Shown: positions 4,973 through 30,828 of the stretch, one piece after another | How positions within the stretch are numbered: position 1 is the first letter of the stretch | Layout of the letters: every line of letters starts with the position of its first letter | Assembly (NCBI GenBank): GCA_041665405.1 | Contig: JBAYIZ010000002.1 | Span: forward strand, 7,300-71,299 | Length of the DNA stretch: 64,000 nucleotides | Reading direction: 5' to 3' | DNA from: Candidatus Magasanikiibacteriota bacterium | Lineage (GTDB): Bacteria > Patescibacteriota > Patescibacteriia > Magasanikbacterales > GWA2-37-8 | Translations under genes and position numbers: made by a program | The notes under the pieces: generated by a model | What the model was told of the DNA's origin: nothing | Seen by the model: only the letters and a program-made list of their open reading frames with translations | Database searches by the model: none

Positions 4973-7489
4973 TTATTTAACAAACAGTTGCTTTTCGTTA
5001 ATATCCAAAGTGTACTGTTTTTTATTTTTCTTTTTCAAAATTTCGGTAGCCATTAATTTTTCTATGGCCGTTCGTAGCTCACGGCGAATAGTGCGGGCAT
5101 TGGCGTTGGTAGTCGGAAGGGAAGCAACATAATCTGAAAGTATTTTTTCCTTGGTAATTACCTTGGTGTGATATTGCGCGAGCTGTTCGTTGAATTTCGC
5201 GATTTCTAGTTCGGCAATTTTGGCTAGATCAATGGCAGTCAAAGTATTGAACAAACAAATTTTATCCAAGCGATTGATAAGCTCAGGAGAAAAATATTCT
5301 TTTAGCTTTTCGGTAATTTTTTTATTATAAACTTCACTCTGAGCACCAGTTCCGCCAAAGCCAAAATCGGCACGTTTGGCGACTTCTGCACCCAACGAAG
5401 TGGTTAGTATTATTATAGCATGTTTTAAAGAAATTTTCTTCCCCGTAGAGTCGGTAATTTCCCCATTTTCCAGAATTTGTAATAATAGCTTGGTGACGTC
5501 TCTGTGTGCCTTGTCTATTTCATCAAAAAGCACTACGCAATGTGGGTTGTTTTTTATCTTGTCGGTAAAATTATTACTCTCTTTATAGCCAATATAACCG
5601 GCGGGAGAACCCAAAAGTTTGGACACGCCAAAACTTTCATTGAATTCGCTCATGTCCAATTTTATTAATGAACCTTTGTTTGGGTATAGAGTTTCAGCGA
5701 TAGTTTTGGCCAGTTCGGTTTTGCCCATACCACTTTGGCCGACAAACATAAAAGAGGCTAGTGGTCTATCTGGGTGGTTGAGCCCGAGTCTAGCGCGATT
5801 AATAATTTCGGCGACTTCATGCGTTACATTGTCTTGTCCGATGACTAGCGATTTTAATTTATCTTCCAAATCTAGTAATTCATTTTTTTCTTCCATGATA
5901 AGTTCACTCGGTTTAGATCCAATAATTTTAGCAATTTGTTCTAATACATCATGGTCGGTAATTTCACCGAGAAATTCAGTCTTTTTTTCTTTAGCAATTT
6001 TATTTTCAATATCTATTTCAAGTTTTAATTTTTCTTCTTGTTTTTTGAATTTTACTGCATCGTCAAATTTATCTGAAAGTGCGGCTGCTTCTTTAGCGGA
6101 AATTATTTTTTCTAATTTTTGTTTGAGACGTTCTATTTTTCCCACCCAAGAAGAATTTTTGGAGTTGATTCTTTTCGCGGCGGCAGTTTCGTCTAATATG
6201 TCGATAGCCTTATCTGGTAAAAATTTATTGGTGATGTATCTCTGTGACAGACGAACCGATGCTTCTACCGCAGATTTAGTAATTTTTATACTGTGAAAAA
6301 TTTCGTAGTTGGTTTTAATTCCTTCAAGAATTTTTACTGAATCTTCGGCCGTTGGCTCTTTGACAAAAATAGGTTGGAAGCGACGTTCTAGTGCCGAATC
6401 ACTTTCAATGTGCTTTTTGAATTCATTTAAAGTGGTAGATCCAATACAGCGAATTTGGCCTCGTGCTAGCGCTGGTTTGAGAATATTGGCGGCATCCATA
6501 GTACCTTGGCCACTGCCCGCTCCGACGATGTTGTGCAATTCATCGATAAATAAAATAATATTTGGATTGGCCGCGACGTCATCAATCACCTGGCGCAGAC
6601 GTCCTTCAAATTCACCGCGATAAATAGTACCAGCAATCAGTAACCCCATATCGAGGGCGTAGACTTTTTTGTTTAACAAAATATCTGGTACTTTATTTTG
6701 TAAAATACGTTTGGCTAGACCTTCGACGATAGCAGTTTTACCAACACCAGGTTCACCCAATAGTACCGGATTATTTTTAGTACGGCGACAAAGAATTTGA
6801 ATCAATCTTTCGATTTCGTTTTCTCGTCCGATGATTGGATCAATATTTTTTTGTAATTCCGGATTGGTAAGATTGGTGGCAAAAAAATCCAGAGCCATTT
6901 CTTTTTTACCAGATCGTTTATTATTTTTTGATGAGATAGGGGACTGATGCACATCACTATGTTCTGATCCCAACAAACTATCTTGGATTCTATCTACCGC
7001 TTCCATTACTTCATTTATTTGGGGGAATTGTGAGGCATTGGTAAGTACAATATTTAGTTGTTTGGAAATATCCGTCAACGAAACTTTATTATCTTTTAAA
7101 ATTAAATTAATTTTAGGATCATTTAGTTCGATTGTTCCTTTCAACAAATGCTCTGTGCCAATATAGTTGTGTAAATGTTCTTGAGCGATAGTCATAGCCT
7201 TTTCCACTGCAAATTTTGCGTCAGCGGACAATGCGGTCATTTCTATTTCTGTTGTGTTAGTTGTCTTTTTGATATTAGCAGTCGGCAGTTCCAAAATTAT
7301 TTTTTCCACGTTTTTTAAATCAATTTTTAGACGGTTTAATATTTCAGCCGCCACAGAGCCTTTTTGGTTTTGTAAAATGAAAAACAGATGAACAGGCTCT
7401 ACCTCTTTATTTTCTAGCTTTGTCGCCAATTGAATGCTTTTGCTCAGTACGTCTTTAAGGTGGGTTGAAAATCTATCTAAAATAGACAT
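4973..7489 (-). CDS. clpC: Clp/Hsp100 AAA+ ATPase, ClpC-like (two NBDs, Clp_N domain, putative ClpP-docking FGF loop)
   Basis: Clp N-terminal repeat region. NBD1 Walker A GEPGVGKT and NBD2 Walker A GQSGMGKT. Short middle domain and a ...RADFGFGG... loop resembling the ClpP-interaction tripeptide, favouring ClpC over ClpB. Confidence 0.85.
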
Positions 7490-26246: not shown

Positions 26247-29200
26247 ATGTCTAAGTATAACCATAAAGAAGTAGAGAAGAAATGGAAGAAAAATTGGGAG
26301 AAAAGCGAGATATACAAAACAAAGGAACCATCCTTCGCCAAGGCTACGGCGGGCAAGGCGAAATACTATGTTTTGGATATGTTTCCATATCCGTCTGGGG
26401 CAGGTTTGCATGTTGGTCATCCAAAAGGATATATTGCGACCGATATCGTGGCTCGTATGAAAATGATGCAGGGATTCAACGTTCTTCACCCTATGGGTTG
26501 GGATGCTTTTGGTTTGCCAGCCGAAAATTATGCTTTGAAAAATAAAGTTCACCCTTCTGATGGAACAGCAAAAAATGTAGCTACTTTTAAAAAACAATTG
26601 GGCTTGCTTGGTTTTACTTATGATTGGGACAGGGAAGTGAATACCACTGATCCGAAATATTATAAATGGACACAGTGGATTTTTTTACAGATGTTTAAAA
26701 AAGGTTTGGCTTTTGAATCCTTCGCGCCAATCAATTGGTGTCCAGATTGCAAAACTGGTTTGGCCAATGAAGATTTAGAGGGTGGGTTGTGTGAACGCTG
26801 TGGTAGTGAGATCGAGCGCAAACCAATGCGCCAATGGGTATTACGTATTACCGATTATGCGGAAAAATTATTATCTGGGTTAGATACTTTGACCGCTTGG
26901 CCAGAACATATTAAAAAAATGCAAAGTGATTGGATTGGAAAGAGCGAGGGGGCGTTGGTAGATTTTAAAATAAAGGACAGTGACCAAACCCTAAAAGTAT
27001 TTACCACTCGTCCAGATACTTTATTTGGTGCGACTTATATGGTAGTTGCACCTGAGCATCCATTGATTTCCGAAAATTTAGACAAAATTTCCAATAAAAA
27101 AGCCGTTCAAGAATATATTGAAGTCGCCAAAAGTAAAAGTGATTTGGAACGTACCGAATTACAAAAAGAAAAAACCGGTGTGGAATTGAAAGGGCTGAAA
27201 GCAATTAATCCACTCACCAATGAAGAGCTGTCAATTTTTATGGCGGATTATGTTCTATTTGGTTATGGCACAGGCGCTATTATGTCTGTACCAGGACACG
27301 ATGAACGCGATTGGGAGTTTGCCAAAAAATATAAATTACCGATTGTGGATGTGGTCTTACCGGTAAACGAAAAAGGTGATGTTTTGTTTGATGCTAATAA
27401 TCTCAGTGACAAACCTTTTACCGAAGACGGTGTAGCGGTGAATTCTGATTTTATAAATAATTTACCCACTCCACAAGCCAAAGAAAAAATGCTTAGTTAT
27501 TTGGAAGAAAAGGGAATTGGACAGAGAAAAATACAATATAAATTGCGTGACTGGGTGTTTTCTAGGCAACGTTATTGGGGTGAGCCAATTCCATTGGTGC
27601 ATTGTGAACAATGTCAAAATAAAAAATATAATTATATAATTTTGCATGGATTCAGCGGTACGGCTGATAAGAATGGACCAAACCGAGGGGAAAGTAATAA
27701 TTGGAGGCCGTGGATAAAGTCAAAATTAGAAGATAAGGGAAATAAAGTATTTTGTCCCAATTTACCTAATACATTTGAACCAAATATCGAAGAACAGGTT
27801 CAGTATGTTATAGATAATGTGGGTTTCGAGATTAATGATGGCACTATTATCGTTGGACATAGTTTGGGTGCGGTCGTTATTTATAGATTATTAGAAAAAT
27901 TAAATAAAAAAGTTGGTAAAGTAGTTTTGGTTGACCCAGTAGTTACGGATAATTTTGTTGATCATGAAAGACCGAAAGTTACAAAAAGTTGTAATTGGAA
28001 ATTTAATTTTGAAAAAATTAAAAAATTGAGCAAAGAATTTATTGTGTTAGGTGATTCTGATTTTGGTGTAATTTTTGAAAAGGATATAAAGGATTTAGTT
28101 GAAAATTTAACTGCAAAATTAATTTTGTCTAAACCAAGCGCGGGTCATTTTACAGCCGAACAAGAGCCATCAGTGTGGGGTGTGTTAGATCAAAATGGTT
28201 GGGTGCCAGTGCCTGAAAAAGATTTACCACTTGAATTACCAAAAGTAAAAAATTATGAACCAAGCGGTACTGGTGAATCGCCATTGGCTACCATTTCAGA
28301 TTGGGTAAATACCAGCTGTCCGCAGTGTGGTGGTCCTGCTAAGCGTGAAACCAATACCATGCCACAATGGGCAGGGAGTTGTTGGTATTATTTGCGCTAT
28401 GAAGATCCGCACAATACCAAAGAATTGGTTAGTAAAGAAAAAGAAAAATATTGGTCACCGATTGATTTGTATGTGGGCGGGGCTGAACATGCTACTCGTC
28501 ATTTGATATACGCTCGTTTTTGGCATAAGTTTTTATTTGATATTGGCATGGTCAATTATGATGAACCATTTACTCGTTTGCAAAATGTCGGTTTGATTTT
28601 GGCCGAAGATGGTCGCAAGATGAGTAAACGTTGGAACAATGTTATTAATCCAGATGATGTGGTAGAGGAGTACGGTGCCGATGCGATGCGTTTGTATGAA
28701 ATGTTTATGGGGCCATTTGATCAACCGTGTGCTTGGAGCACCAAAGGGGTAGTGGGTGTACGCAGATTTTTGGAGAGAGCGTGGACATTGGCAGAGAAAG
28801 TGAAATCTGATATTGTCATTCCCGTGAAAACGGGAATCCACGGTGTTGGATCCCCAATCAAGTCGGGGATGACAACTGTGTTACATCAGACGATCAAAAA
28901 AGTTTCTGAGGATATTTTGGCGTTGCATTTCAACACCGCTATTTCATCAATGATGGAATTGGTCAATGAAATGAATAAAGTGCCGAATGTATCCAAAGAA
29001 GATTTTGTTTTGTTGTTACAATTATTATCTCCATTTGCGCCTCATATTACCGAAGAATTATGGTCTCAAGTTGGTAATAAAGGCAGTATTTTTGAATCTG
29101 TTTGGCCACAACATAATGCCGAGCTGGCCAAAGACACTGAAATTACTTTAGCTATTCAAATAAATGGTAAATTGAGAGATACTATTTTGGTCTCAGCAGA

Positions 29201-29324
29201 TATAAGTGAAGAAGAAGCGAAACAAGCATCGTTAAATTCAGAAAAAGTACAAAAATGGTTGGAAGGAAAGACACCGAAAAAAGTAATTTATGTAAAAAAT
29301 AAATTAGTTAGTATAGTAGTTTAG
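26247..29324 (+). CDS. leuS: Leucine--tRNA ligase carrying a ~230-aa alpha/beta-hydrolase (RBBP9/YdeN-like serine hydrolase) domain inserted in the zinc-knuckle/leucyl-specific region, plus an in-frame copy of the hairpin repeat
   Basis: HIGH-type PYPSGAGLHVGHPKGY, KMSKRW (KMSKS), CP1 editing region. The insertion ILHGFSG...GHSLGA...LGDSD...AGHF sits between HCEQCQ and CPQCGGPAKRE. Hairpin repeat at 28814-28840 encodes VIPVKTGIH. Confidence 0.9.
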   Translation: MSKYNHKEVEKKWKKNWEKSEIYKTKEPSFAKATAGKAKYYVLDMFPYPSGAGLHVGHPKGYIATDIVARMKMMQGFNVLHPMGWDAFGLPAENYALKNKVHPSDGTAKNVATFKKQLGLLGFTYDWDREVNTTDPKYYKWTQWIFLQMFKKGLAFESFAPINWCPDCKTGLANEDLEGGLCERCGSEIERKPMRQWVLRITDYAEKLLSGLDTLTAWPEHIKKMQSDWIGKSEGALVDFKIKDSDQTLKVFTTRPDTLFGATYMVVAPEHPLISENLDKISNKKAVQEYIEVAKSKSDLERTELQKEKTGVELKGLKAINPLTNEELSIFMADYVLFGYGTGAIMSVPGHDERDWEFAKKYKLPIVDVVLPVNEKGDVLFDANNLSDKPFTEDGVAVNSDFINNLPTPQAKEKMLSYLEEKGIGQRKIQYKLRDWVFSRQRYWGEPIPLVHCEQCQNKKYNYIILHGFSGTADKNGPNRGESNNWRPWIKSKLEDKGNKVFCPNLPNTFEPNIEEQVQYVIDNVGFEINDGTIIVGHSLGAVVIYRLLEKLNKKVGKVVLVDPVVTDNFVDHERPKVTKSCNWKFNFEKIKKLSKEFIVLGDSDFGVIFEKDIKDLVENLTAKLILSKPSAGHFTAEQEPSVWGVLDQNGWVPVPEKDLPLELPKVKNYEPSGTGESPLATISDWVNTSCPQCGGPAKRETNTMPQWAGSCWYYLRYEDPHNTKELVSKEKEKYWSPIDLYVGGAEHATRHLIYARFWHKFLFDIGMVNYDEPFTRLQNVGLILAEDGRKMSKRWNNVINPDDVVEEYGADAMRLYEMFMGPFDQPCAWSTKGVVGVRRFLERAWTLAEKVKSDIVIPVKTGIHGVGSPIKSGMTTVLHQTIKKVSEDILALHFNTAISSMMELVNEMNKVPNVSKEDFVLLLQLLSPFAPHITEELWSQVGNKGSIFESVWPQHNAELAKDTEITLAIQINGKLRDTILVSADISEEEAKQASLNSEKVQKWLEGKTPKKVIYVKNKLVSIVV
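28814..28840 (+). repeat. Copy C of 27-nt GNRA-hairpin repeat (tgtcattcccgtGAAAacgggaatcca), in-frame inside leuS; possibly extended by a second small hairpin atccccaatcaagtcggggat and outer tgtcat/atgaca inverted repeat (to ~28873)
   Basis: Stem attcccgt/acgggaat, GAAA loop. Same frame usage (V-I-P-x-K-x-G-I) as the pgm copy. Confidence 0.75.
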
Positions 29325-29328
29325 TGGT

Positions 29329-30828
29329 ATGCTCAAGGAGGGGATAAATTTGATTGTAGAATCAAAAAGCAGGTCTTTTTTGGGCCTGTGTTTTTGTTTT
29401 ATTTTAGGGGTAGCGATATTTTCTTTAAATAATACTAATTATTGGCAAATATATTTATTTGTAATTTTGTTTATAACATTGTTTTTCCTAATTATTTATT
29501 GGAGCAATAAAATTGTAAGATATTGTTTGTTATGCGGGTTGTTTTTTATATCGGGTGGCTTGCGTTTTTTTCTTTCTATACCGAGTAATAATGACAATAA
29601 TATAAGTTATTATAATGGTCATACAATAAATTTTGTTACCAAAGTATCTCAGGAAGTGGTATCCAAAGAAAATAGCACCCAGGTCGTTGTTTCATCTGAA
29701 AAAATACAGAATAAAAATGTGAGTGGAAAAGTTTTGTTATACTTGCCACCATATAGTGATTTGAAATTTGGTGATAAAATTAGTGTGGAGTGTTTATTAA
29801 AGAAGCCGGAAGGTTCGGAAACATTTATAAATTATGATAAATATTTGGCACGTAATGGTGTGTGGTCTCAATGTAGTTGGCCCAAAATATTAAAATTATA
29901 TTCGAAACCGTCATGGATAGAAAATATTATTAATAATTTCTATAATTTTAAACAGCAAGTTCAATCAAAAGTTGATGAATTATGGGTAGAACCGGAAAGC
30001 GCCTTGATGTCTGGTCTACTCTATGGTGCGCGAGCAAGTTTTAGCGCAGAAGTAAGTAATGATTTTAGTCGAACTGGGATCACTCATATTGTGGCAATTT
30101 CCGGATATAATATTAGTATTATTGCCAATATTTTAATGGGTGGATTATTGATGATCGGATTAAATCGGCGTCGTGCATTTTGGTTTGCGATAATTGGGAT
30201 AATTTTATTTGTGCTGTTTACTGGAGCATCGGCCTCGGTAGTCCGAGCGGGGATTATGGGTGTGATAGTATTATTAGCTACTCAAATGGGTAGATTGTCT
30301 CGCATTGGCAATGTTTTAGTATTTACGGCAGCCCTAATGTTATTACTCAATCCATTTGTTTTAGTTTGGGATGCTGGATTTCAGTTATCATTTTTATCAA
30401 CAATTGGATTGATCTATTTAGCGCCTATCATTAATGCTCATTTTGCTAATAATATCAAAAATAAGTGGCTGGCTAGTTTAAAGGAAAATTTTATTTCAAC
30501 AATATCAGCGATTGTTATAACATTGCCACTAATTTTGTTTCAATTTGGGCGATTATCCATTGTAGCACCGCTAGCCAATATGATTATTATTTGGATTATT
30601 CCGTATTTGATGTTAGTTGGTTTTGTATCTATAATTTTAAGTTTCATATTCTTTCCTTTAGCTCAGCTAGTTGCATGGGTGGCCTATTTAGGTTTAAAAT
30701 ATGTTATAATAATGTCACATACATTGGCTAGTTGGTCATTGGCTAGCGTTAAGTTTTCGGTGTCGTTTGTTGTAATGATATTTTTATACGGTTTAATATT
30801 GTTATGGATATATAAAAAATCTGAATAA
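29329..30828 (+). CDS. comEC: ComEC/Rec2 competence protein, N-terminal (DUF4131 + competence channel domain) portion
   Basis: Multi-TM, ...FSRTGITHIVAISGYNISII... competence domain signature. The MBL-fold domain is encoded separately at 31588..32442. Confidence 0.75.
   Translation: MLKEGINLIVESKSRSFLGLCFCFILGVAIFSLNNTNYWQIYLFVILFITLFFLIIYWSNKIVRYCLLCGLFFISGGLRFFLSIPSNNDNNISYYNGHTINFVTKVSQEVVSKENSTQVVVSSEKIQNKNVSGKVLLYLPPYSDLKFGDKISVECLLKKPEGSETFINYDKYLARNGVWSQCSWPKILKLYSKPSWIENIINNFYNFKQQVQSKVDELWVEPESALMSGLLYGARASFSAEVSNDFSRTGITHIVAISGYNISIIANILMGGLLMIGLNRRRAFWFAIIGIILFVLFTGASASVVRAGIMGVIVLLATQMGRLSRIGNVLVFTAALMLLLNPFVLVWDAGFQLSFLSTIGLIYLAPIINAHFANNIKNKWLASLKENFISTISAIVITLPLILFQFGRLSIVAPLANMIIIWIIPYLMLVGFVSIILSFIFFPLAQLVAWVAYLGLKYVIIMSHTLASWSLASVKFSVSFVVMIFLYGLILLWIYKKSE

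Follow-up and report, generated by a model that had tools for sequence, protein, structure and literature searches.

Which domain interrupts the leucyl-tRNA synthetase (LeuRS) gene of a Candidatus Magasanikiibacteriota bacterium, how did it come to lie there, and what might it do? The gene, leuS, lies on contig JBAYIZ010000002.1 of assembly GCA_041665405.1, in a stretch of 64,000 nucleotides (positions 7,300 to 71,299 of the forward strand) that we call the window. Its product has 1025 residues and contains a nested segment of 194 residues. Alignments and structure models indicate that this segment is an independently folding serine hydrolase of family PF06821, the family of human RBBP9 and Bacillus subtilis YdeN, placed in the hairpin of the second zinc domain (ZN-2) of an otherwise complete LeuRS. 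Comparison of relatives shows that the hydrolase is an optional guest cassette of leuS, and we consider it very probable that the cassette is nested, folded and maintained by selection.

By sequence comparison, the leuS product is a complete LeuRS of the bacterial type with a guest domain. The whole protein scores 1021 bits against TIGR00396 leuS_bact (cut-off 548), contains the Pfam domains tRNA-synt_1, tRNA-synt_1_2 and Anticodon_1, and matches the LeuRS of Thermus thermophilus (1h3n) with an E-value of 1.3e-223. HIGH, KMSKS and the two zinc knuckles are all retained in the host, as are the editing residues of the CP1 domain, where the motifs TTRPDT (residues 253–258) and HDERD (residues 351–355) are intact and nearly invariant in a LeuRS alignment (A1). 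In the alignment to 1h3n, T. thermophilus residues 1–442, 443–579 and 638–876 correspond to residues 1–456, 651–786 and 792–1025 of the product. The insertion point thus falls between C442 and G443 of T. thermophilus, right behind the first CxxC of ZN-2. All four ZN-2 cysteines are kept, with C453, C456, C691 and C694 corresponding to C439, C442, C484 and C487, so the guest is flanked by the two halves of a zinc ribbon, just as the original prediction made from the letters of the window had it. That prediction put the extra length at about 230 residues, whereas the T. thermophilus alignment gives 194, and 234 residues is the entire distance between the two ZN-2 knuckles. It also took the site for that of the leucyl-specific insertion, which has to be revised: the actual site is ZN-2, and the leucine-specific domain (T. 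thermophilus 580–637, before KMSKS) has no counterpart in the alignment to 1h3n, where residue 786 of the product is followed by 792. The leucine-specific domain is found in T. thermophilus and Escherichia coli and not in every LeuRS; insert-free orthologues of 802 residues also lack it. ZN-2 is a zinc domain specific to bacteria, and mutation of its cysteines abolishes aminoacylation in another LeuRS (PMC4005665).

The family of the guest was recognized consistently at the levels of profile, sequence and fold. The whole protein scored 29.3 bits against PF06821 (Ser_hydrolase) and the segment alone 32.5 bits, with a gathering score of 22, and PF00561 scored 29–34 bits with a gathering score of 25.8. 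B. subtilis YdeN (1uxo) matched the segment with an E-value of 2.9e-11 and human RBBP9 with 1e-7. The AlphaFold model of the insert alone reached a mean predicted local distance difference test score (pLDDT) of 91.1 and a predicted template modelling score (pTM) of 0.90, with a beta-alpha-beta pattern (24-sequence alignment A2). In Foldseek comparisons this model gave template modelling (TM) scores of 0.81/0.84 to 1uxo and about 0.80/0.85 to RBBP9 (2qs9/7oex), with root-mean-square deviations of 2.4–2.7 Å; the next-best folds, other alpha/beta hydrolases, fell to about 0.65–0.70 by query (TMq) and about 0.5 by target (TMt). In the full-length model (pLDDT 83.6, pTM 0.78) the insert stands at 87–96 except for the loop of residues 470–489, consistent with a separately folded excursion. 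Hence, the original assignment to an RBBP9/YdeN-like hydrolase is upheld by all these comparisons. In Pfam and NCBIfam scans the segment matched alpha/beta-hydrolase families only and had no homology to CP1, AlaX/tRNA_SAD, YbaK/ProX, Dtd or Pth, so that tRNA deacylation by the insert, if real, would be carried out by a fold with no known deacylase role. A nine-residue extra loop, KNGPNRGES (residues 475–483; window 27669–27695), lies behind the His-Gly motif, is common only to P0009/L003 among the 24 aligned domains, and is the sole low-confidence part of the insert model.

The predicted catalytic motifs lie where they had been placed (ILHGFSG at residue 465, GHSLGA at 537, LGDSD at 601 and AGHF at 632). 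Their conservation was counted in an alignment of 179 near-complete domains from two database searches, in which the clade of the window has 22 members. H467 of the oxyanion-hole motif is invariant in alignment A2 (H11); all 22 clade members have it, and so do 145 of 154 other family members. All 76 LeuRS-embedded copies and all 24 copies in other hosts retain the serine nucleophile, as do 152 of 154 members of the family beyond the clade; His634 is likewise kept in 76 of 76 and 24 of 24. The Ser and His of the proposed triad and the His-Gly motif are therefore conserved among homologues. The acid assigned to LGDSD is a different matter, since it lies off the canonical column. The canonical acid of the family follows strand beta7 in an S-D-N-D-P motif; in RBBP9 it is D138, the second Asp of STDDP, and the insert has Phe606 there. 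D603 and D605, both just upstream of Phe606, are not invariant (D603 occurs in 20 of the 22 clade members, and D605 is variable), and we rejected LGDSD as the triad acid.

Covariation points to another candidate. Column 606 is Asp in 137 of the 179 family members and Phe, Tyr or Arg in the clade of the window, where all members have Asp563 after strand beta6; elsewhere in the family the column of Asp563 holds Ala, Gly or Ser. Asp563 without an acid at 606 was found in 26 domains, an acid at 606 without Asp563 in 145, both in three and neither in five. Because D563 and column 606 covary across the 179 domains, the triad acid has probably moved from its position after beta7 to Asp563 after beta6. 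Similar displacements from beta7 to beta6 are known from pancreatic lipase and from the haloalkane dehalogenases LinB and DhaA. Three site-A inserts (P0129, P0133 and P0136; the sites are defined below) carry both Asp563 and Glu at column 606, and these may be intermediates in the relocation. In addition, an acidic loop (FVDHERP) follows Asp563; its D572 is invariant in the clade, and E574 would, by alignment, be the counterpart of E108, the alpha-amine anchor of RBBP9.

The cassette is far from universal, even among the closest relatives of this leuS. Large inserts in LeuRS occur mainly at three places, which are site A in ZN-2, site B at the turn of the first CP1 hairpin (residues ~243–247, before TTRPDT), and site C in CP1 at residues ~370–390. 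In the full-length model the hairpin of site B is formed by strands 232–242 and 248–253, with residues 243–247 as its turn. The 119 nearest LeuRS clusters comprise 68 without a large insert; inserts at sites A, B and C were counted in 32, 7 and 23 of them. Three relatives with backbones 85–87% identical to that of the window (P0010, P0012, P0013) have no insert, three at 84–85% (P0007, P0008, P0011) carry the hydrolase at site B, and three at 80–81% (P0014, P0015, P0017) carry a hydrolase at site A. All these alleles lie at the same locus as that of the window. L004 is an empty allele, L005 has the hydrolase at site B, and L007 has one of a different lineage at site A; the upstream order GDH-Fpg-leuS is common to these three and the window, with GT2 between Fpg and leuS except in L007. 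The empty alleles have an exact junction in which the second Cys of the knuckle is followed directly by GW, and dozens of independent assemblies share the junction HCExC/xNKK...N/GW.PVPE (slashes mark the borders). The architecture recurs in more than 30 independent protein clusters, and the insert is patchy among the nearest relatives.

Several observations on neighbouring loci may be added here. The upstream arrangement PheS-PheT-...-GDH-Fpg-GT2-leuS, as in L002, is kept in relatives, and the genes downstream vary by allele, with ComEC in the window and response regulators or EamA in L004, L005 and L007. In L001:1-2275 (JGI 3300024056, Ga0124853_1298387) the LeuRS gene is riddled with frameshifts, probably from an error-prone assembly; its hydrolase lies directly upstream of TTRPDT (site B), its ZN-2 is uninterrupted, and it gave the first hint of a second site.

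The insert and its host gene have different histories. The insert of the window is 71% identical to that of P0009, with a backbone identity of only 68%, and about 29% identical to that of P0014, with a backbone identity of 81%. Nonsynonymous divergence (dN) repeats this disagreement: against L007 (P0014) it is 0.76 in the insert and 0.11–0.18 in the backbone, and against L003 (P0009-like, Magasanikbacteria RIFOXYC2_FULL_42_28) it is 0.20 in the insert and 0.23–0.29 in the backbone. Residues adjacent to the junctions (HCE.C with H452, and E658-K-D in EKDLP) are P0009-like, and the backbone farther out is P0010-like. GC content is 31% in the insert (22% at third codon positions, GC3) versus 39% in the backbone (GC3 34%). 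These discordant histories mean that the cassette has been exchanged between leuS alleles, with homologous recombination via the conserved flanks as the likely route. The ratio of nonsynonymous to synonymous divergence (dN/dS) against L003 is 0.105 in the insert and 0.07–0.14 in the backbone; purifying selection on the insert is as strong as on the backbone.

A 7-nt direct repeat, TCAAAAT, stands at both junctions (window 27614–27620 and 28190–28196) and encodes Gln-Asn at the start and at the end of the insert. The same heptamer occurs 32 times on the plus strand of the window, and relatives share just one Asn near each junction at the protein level. The repeat is probably due to chance or microhomology. 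Transposition was considered and rejected, given that the repeat looks like chance and that the site in the empty alleles, as inferred from protein sequence, has no repeat.

The domain is not confined to LeuRS. An exhaustive phmmer search with the insert returned 1205 matches, and among the best 150 representatives of 50%-identity clusters, 40 were LeuRS proteins with the domain at site A or B. These carriers belong, by the source names of the sequences, to Taylorbacteria, Uhrbacteria, Minisyncoccia, Saccharimonadales and Magasanikbacteria. A scan of GTDB species representatives with the insert sequence gave a single close relative, which is 72% identical and comes from Magasanikbacteria RIFOXYC2_FULL_42_28. 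Other proteins with a nested PF06821 domain are ValRS (two clusters), AlaRS, TsaD, the GTPase Der/EngA and SecA (P0146, P0176, P0200, P0214, P0229 and P0235), with Ser and His kept in all. End-to-end fusions join the hydrolase to Peptidase_S51, NUDIX, HD, nucleotidyltransferase, glyoxalase and Trbp111-type tRNA_bind domains. The last combination, Ser_hydrolase with a tRNA_bind domain of the Trbp111/MetRS-beta type in about 300 residues, forms 15 diverged clusters (P0270 and P0287–P0300), which are 40–49% identical to P0270 of Candidatus Harrisonbacteria; NCBI labels some of these fusions methionine--tRNA ligase subunit beta. Stand-alone copies of ~190 residues are very common in Patescibacteria; one of them, P0004 of Peregrinibacteria, has neighbours that give no clue (LemA, a TPM phosphatase and SpoU).

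What would such a domain do in a synthetase? We know of no function for the bacterial PF06821/YdeN family. A nested, catalytically active cassette acting on aminoacyl groups is the explanation that we favour, tentatively and at somewhat less than even chances. The hydrolase is apparently active, as judged from its conserved residues, and would work through Ser539 and His634 with the acid relocated to Asp563. RBBP9, an aminopeptidase, requires a substrate whose free alpha-amine is anchored by Glu108 (PMC8866121), and by analogy the insert would cleave the acyl bond of an amino-acyl group with a free alpha-amine. On this analogy, we give a substrate of the aminoacyl type about an even chance. 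Linkage of the substrate to tRNA is more doubtful. Because tRNA-binding proteins recur among the partners of the domain (two sites of LeuRS, ValRS, AlaRS, TsaD and the Trbp111-type tRNA_bind domain), and most identifiable hosts bind tRNA, we favour an aminoacyl ester on or near tRNA, which could be an aminoacyl-tRNA or an aminoacyl-adenylate-like molecule. The domain would then be an accessory enzyme that deacylates or cleans up in addition to CP1 editing, without taking its place. Replacement was rejected since the editing motifs are intact in the carriers; degenerate CP1 editing was not seen in hydrolase-bearing LeuRS, where only the minor variants TTRLDT, TTRIDT and TTRADT occur. The closest orthologues have no insert and CP1 is intact, so the insert is unnecessary for aminoacylation and editing, and an obligatory role in LeuRS is disfavoured. 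Conversely, strong purifying selection and the repeated tethering to tRNA-binding proteins disfavour a neutral passenger.

Several points weigh against an active cassette that works on aminoacyl groups. The canonical acid is missing from the insert, and the role of D563 is suggested by covariation within essentially one clade, which amounts to about one evolutionary event. The putative alpha-amine anchor position, E574, varies in the clade of the window. In the literature searched, activity data were found for RBBP9 (PMC8866121) and none for bacterial members of PF06821. The nearest orthologues work without the insert, the hosts SecA and Der do not bind tRNA, and the domain is also fused to enzymes as unrelated as Peptidase_S51, NUDIX, HD, nucleotidyltransferase and glyoxalase. 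The census of hosts is biased in that its query was a LeuRS-embedded copy. Moreover, the same or nearby loops in LeuRS of Magasanikbacteria and other Patescibacteria house unrelated guests, namely NUDIX (P0045, P0036, P0078 and P0133), ASCH together with the hydrolase (P0112), a HAD phosphatase-like domain (P0161), an IS200-type Y1 transposase-like domain (Y1_Tnp; P0126) and domains with no Pfam match (P0041, P0086 and P0160). Their insertion points correspond to residues ~214, 240–250, 276, 370–390, 456 and 734 of the window LeuRS, with NUDIX guests at site C and others, and up to three guests are found in one protein, for example P0041 (1321 residues) and P0036 (1260 residues). LeuRS may thus simply be a permissive host.

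The rival explanations differ widely in probability. We give a practically negligible chance to an artefact, be it a chimera of the assembly, two genes fused by a frameshift, or an intein or intron that is lost before the protein matures. The source is a metagenome assembly and the related contig L001 is riddled with frameshifts, which could raise this suspicion; against it stand the continuous reading frame with exact junctions, the identical protein recorded by NCBI, JGI and ENA on one 104-kb contig, and the recurrence of the same junction in dozens of independent assemblies and of the same architecture in more than 30 independent protein clusters. The insert starts with QNKK, ends with LDQN and is followed by Gly651; there is no Cys or Ser at position 1, no His-Asn end and no Cys, Ser or Thr at +1, and no intein family was found in the Pfam scan, in agreement with the original view that the segment is not intein-like. 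A group I or II intron was rejected because Rfam gave no match in the 64-kb window. Also very improbable in our view is a selfish or neutral insertion, which would persist in an essential gene, show intein-like population dynamics in the absence of splicing, be cleanly removed only by recombination with an empty allele, and have no need of its enzymatic activity. The patchiness among close relatives, the discordant phylogenies of insert and host, the GC content below that of the host gene and the nested IS200-like Y1 transposase domain in one related LeuRS would all suit it. A dN/dS of about 0.1, as low as in the LeuRS backbone, does not, and neither does the retention of Ser and His in all 76 LeuRS-embedded copies. 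Selection for catalysis would also follow from a compensated relocation of the acid, and no homing endonuclease, splicing motif or junction repeat conserved across relatives was seen.

An autonomous passenger is the main rival, and we regard it as quite possible. In this case the domain would be an aminopeptidase or esterase unrelated to tRNA, serving amino-acid scavenging or metabolite clean-up in an auxotrophic cell of the candidate phyla radiation (CPR), and LeuRS would be a carrier whose ZN-2 and CP1 hairpins tolerate guests and whose essential, always-expressed gene assures expression of the guest. The abundance of stand-alone copies, the nesting in SecA and Der, the fusions to five unrelated enzyme types, the variety of guests in the same loops, the insert-free nearest orthologues and the intact CP1 editing all speak for a passenger, and RBBP9 itself is a peptide aminopeptidase (PMC8866121). 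Such a passenger has more difficulty with the several diverged hydrolase lineages that reached LeuRS at two different sites, and with the hosts ValRS, AlaRS and TsaD together with the 15-cluster tRNA_bind fusion, an enrichment in tRNA binding that is not obviously a matter of permissiveness alone. By analogy with MccF-like accessory resistance, the hydrolase and the NUDIX domains that accompany it could instead destroy toxins that mimic aminoacyl-adenylates (microcin C, agrocin and aminoacyl-sulfamoyl-adenosine types) in situ. Accessory or resistance traits typically show the polymorphic presence, the cassette exchange and the fast turnover among close relatives that are seen here; LeuRS, ValRS, AlaRS and TsaD form or use adenylates; stand-alone fusions link the domain to an aminoglycoside nucleotidyltransferase and to the glyoxalase/bleomycin-resistance fold; the chemistry of the family is aminoacyl cleavage with a free amine (PMC8866121); and NCBIfam already has an entry for an IleRS extended by a GNAT domain (NF040702). 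We find this immunity improbable, as it is purely analogical: the insert is not homologous to MccF (family S66), its neighbourhood showed no toxin locus, and SecA and Der do not fit as hosts. PADLOC gave no match, and membership in a defence system was rejected.

Compared with YdeN (1uxo) and RBBP9 (2qs9, 7oex), the insert has the same minimal six-stranded alpha/beta-hydrolase fold of ~190 residues, the His-Gly oxyanion motif, the G-H-S-x-G elbow and the C-terminal His, and it shares with RBBP9 the acidic D/E-x-E-R loop (D572-H-E574-R575). Unlike them, it is nested in another enzyme and not free-standing, and it has the nine-residue extra loop. Where RBBP9 has D138 the insert has Phe606, for which the clade-specific Asp563 is the likely substitute, and the RBBP9 pocket residues S76, Y99 and L103 correspond to L540, V565 and N569. 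By profile, fold, nucleophile and His the insert is thus a divergent member of PF06821 that lacks the canonical acid and has a probable relocated one.

Within the synthetases, the nearest parallel is CP1 (PF13603) of LeuRS, IleRS and ValRS, the classical nested hydrolytic domain of class Ia synthetases, which is likewise set into a hairpin on the surface of the Rossmann-fold catalytic domain; in many relatives the RBBP9-like domain even lies within the first CP1 hairpin (site B). The two are unrelated in fold and different in catalytic chemistry. CP1 is universal and vertically inherited, whereas the hydrolase is optional, polymorphic in close relatives and exchanged, and CP1 is retained beside it. 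Like an intein, the cassette is inserted in frame where an essential gene is conserved, is distributed patchily, has a phylogeny discordant with the host, and has empty alleles with an exactly intact site. In contrast to inteins, it has no splicing residues or homing endonuclease, its catalytic residues are under purifying selection, and it presumably stays in the mature protein. Accessory modules of aminoacyl-tRNA synthetases, such as the N-acetyltransferase of an IleRS (NF040702) or the Trbp111/EMAP-II-type tRNA_bind domain of MetRS and PheRS-beta, are likewise extra modules on a synthetase, and the hydrolase, too, is fused to a tRNA_bind domain. However, those modules are terminal appendages of other folds, and here a hydrolase interrupts a zinc knuckle.

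The composite had already been noticed by automated annotation. JGI names the protein leucyl-tRNA synthetase/predicted alpha/beta hydrolase family esterase, and some copies at NCBI are named alpha/beta fold hydrolase; the NCBI record of the window protein reads leucine--tRNA ligase [Candidatus Magasanikbacteria bacterium]. Searches of full-text literature, of limited coverage, turned up no account of a PF06821 domain in an aminoacyl-tRNA synthetase, of the site polymorphism, of NUDIX, HAD or ASCH companion insertions, or of such insertions in the synthetases of CPR bacteria.

The coordinates of the features discussed are collected in Table 1.

Table 1. Features of leuS and of its nested hydrolase domain, in window positions.
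Feature	Position	Strand	Basis
leuS, 1025 residues with nested domain	26247..29324	+	ORF listing; end coordinate counts the stop codon
HIGH motif (HVGH, residues 55–58)	26409..26420	+	nearly invariant in LeuRS alignment A1
ZN-1 knuckles CPDC (residues 165–168) and CERC (residues 182–185)	26739..26801	+	align to T. thermophilus ZN-1 region
CP1 editing domain (residues 228–419)	26928..27503	+	PF13603, E 1.1e-62
First ZN-2 knuckle HCEQC (C453, C456)	27600..27614	+	align to T. thermophilus C439/C442
Nested RBBP9/YdeN-family serine hydrolase domain (residues 457–650, 194 residues)	27615..28196	+	exact gap in T. thermophilus alignment
His467-Gly468 oxyanion-hole motif (ILHGFSG)	27645..27650	+	motif conservation
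Nucleophile elbow GHSLG (residues 537–541); Ser539 = nt 27861–27863	27855..27869	+	aligns to RBBP9 S75
Asp563 after strand beta6 (VLVDP), proposed relocated acid	27933..27935	+	22/22 clade members
FVDHERP loop; D572 invariant in clade; E574, R575 = RBBP9 E108, R109	27954..27974	+	phmmer alignment
Phe606, at the canonical catalytic Asp column of the family (RBBP9 D138)	28062..28064	+	alignment
Catalytic His634 (AGHF)	28146..28148	+	aligns to RBBP9 H165; invariant in A2 (H178)
Rest of ZN-2 (GWVPVPEKDLP...), second knuckle CPQC (C691, C694; nt 28317–28328)	28197..28346	+	= T. thermophilus 443–492 incl. C484, C487
KMSKS motif (KMSKR, residues 791–795)	28617..28631	+	alignment to 1h3n
Anticodon-binding domain (residues 876–988)	28872..29210	+	PF08264, E 4.9e-21

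Elsewhere in the host protein, a loop in the anticodon-binding region (residues 856–872, IVIPVKTGIHGVGSPIK...; window 28812–28862) has very low model confidence. It is encoded by a locally GC-rich stretch, and identity to the closest orthologues is just 0.41–0.52 in that block. Directly after leuS lies a gene for a ComEC-like competence channel (DUF4131 and Competence; window 29329–30828). No Rfam family, including tRNA, rRNA, riboswitches and the T-box, reached its gathering score in the 64-kb window, for which a dedicated tRNA finder was not run.

Aminoacyl-tRNA synthetases rank with the most thoroughly studied enzymes. Their extra modules usually signal an added function such as editing, tRNA binding or regulation, and a hydrolase in the ZN-2 knuckle would surprise specialists of these enzymes. 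The fusion partners give the orphan PF06821/YdeN family a concrete hypothesis, an aminoacyl-type substrate near tRNA. Empty, site-A and site-B orthologous alleles at more than 84% backbone identity form a natural experiment in domain insertion, and the possible move of a catalytic acid from beta7 to beta6 comes with three sequences that hold both acids. In its widest form, which we think rather unlikely as a whole, the finding would be a recombination-mobile catalytic cassette of Patescibacteria, often with NUDIX, that is plugged into surface hairpins of tRNA-handling enzymes (LeuRS at two sites, ValRS, AlaRS and TsaD) or joined to a tRNA-binding domain, and represents an unrecognised class of aminoacyl-tRNA or aminoacyl-adenylate hydrolases, serving proofreading and deacylation or in-situ immunity with an alpha/beta-hydrolase fold and a relocated acid. 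The nested NUDIX, HAD, ASCH and transposase-like guests suggest, moreover, that CPR bacteria, with their few genes, lodge accessory enzymes inside proteins that are essential.

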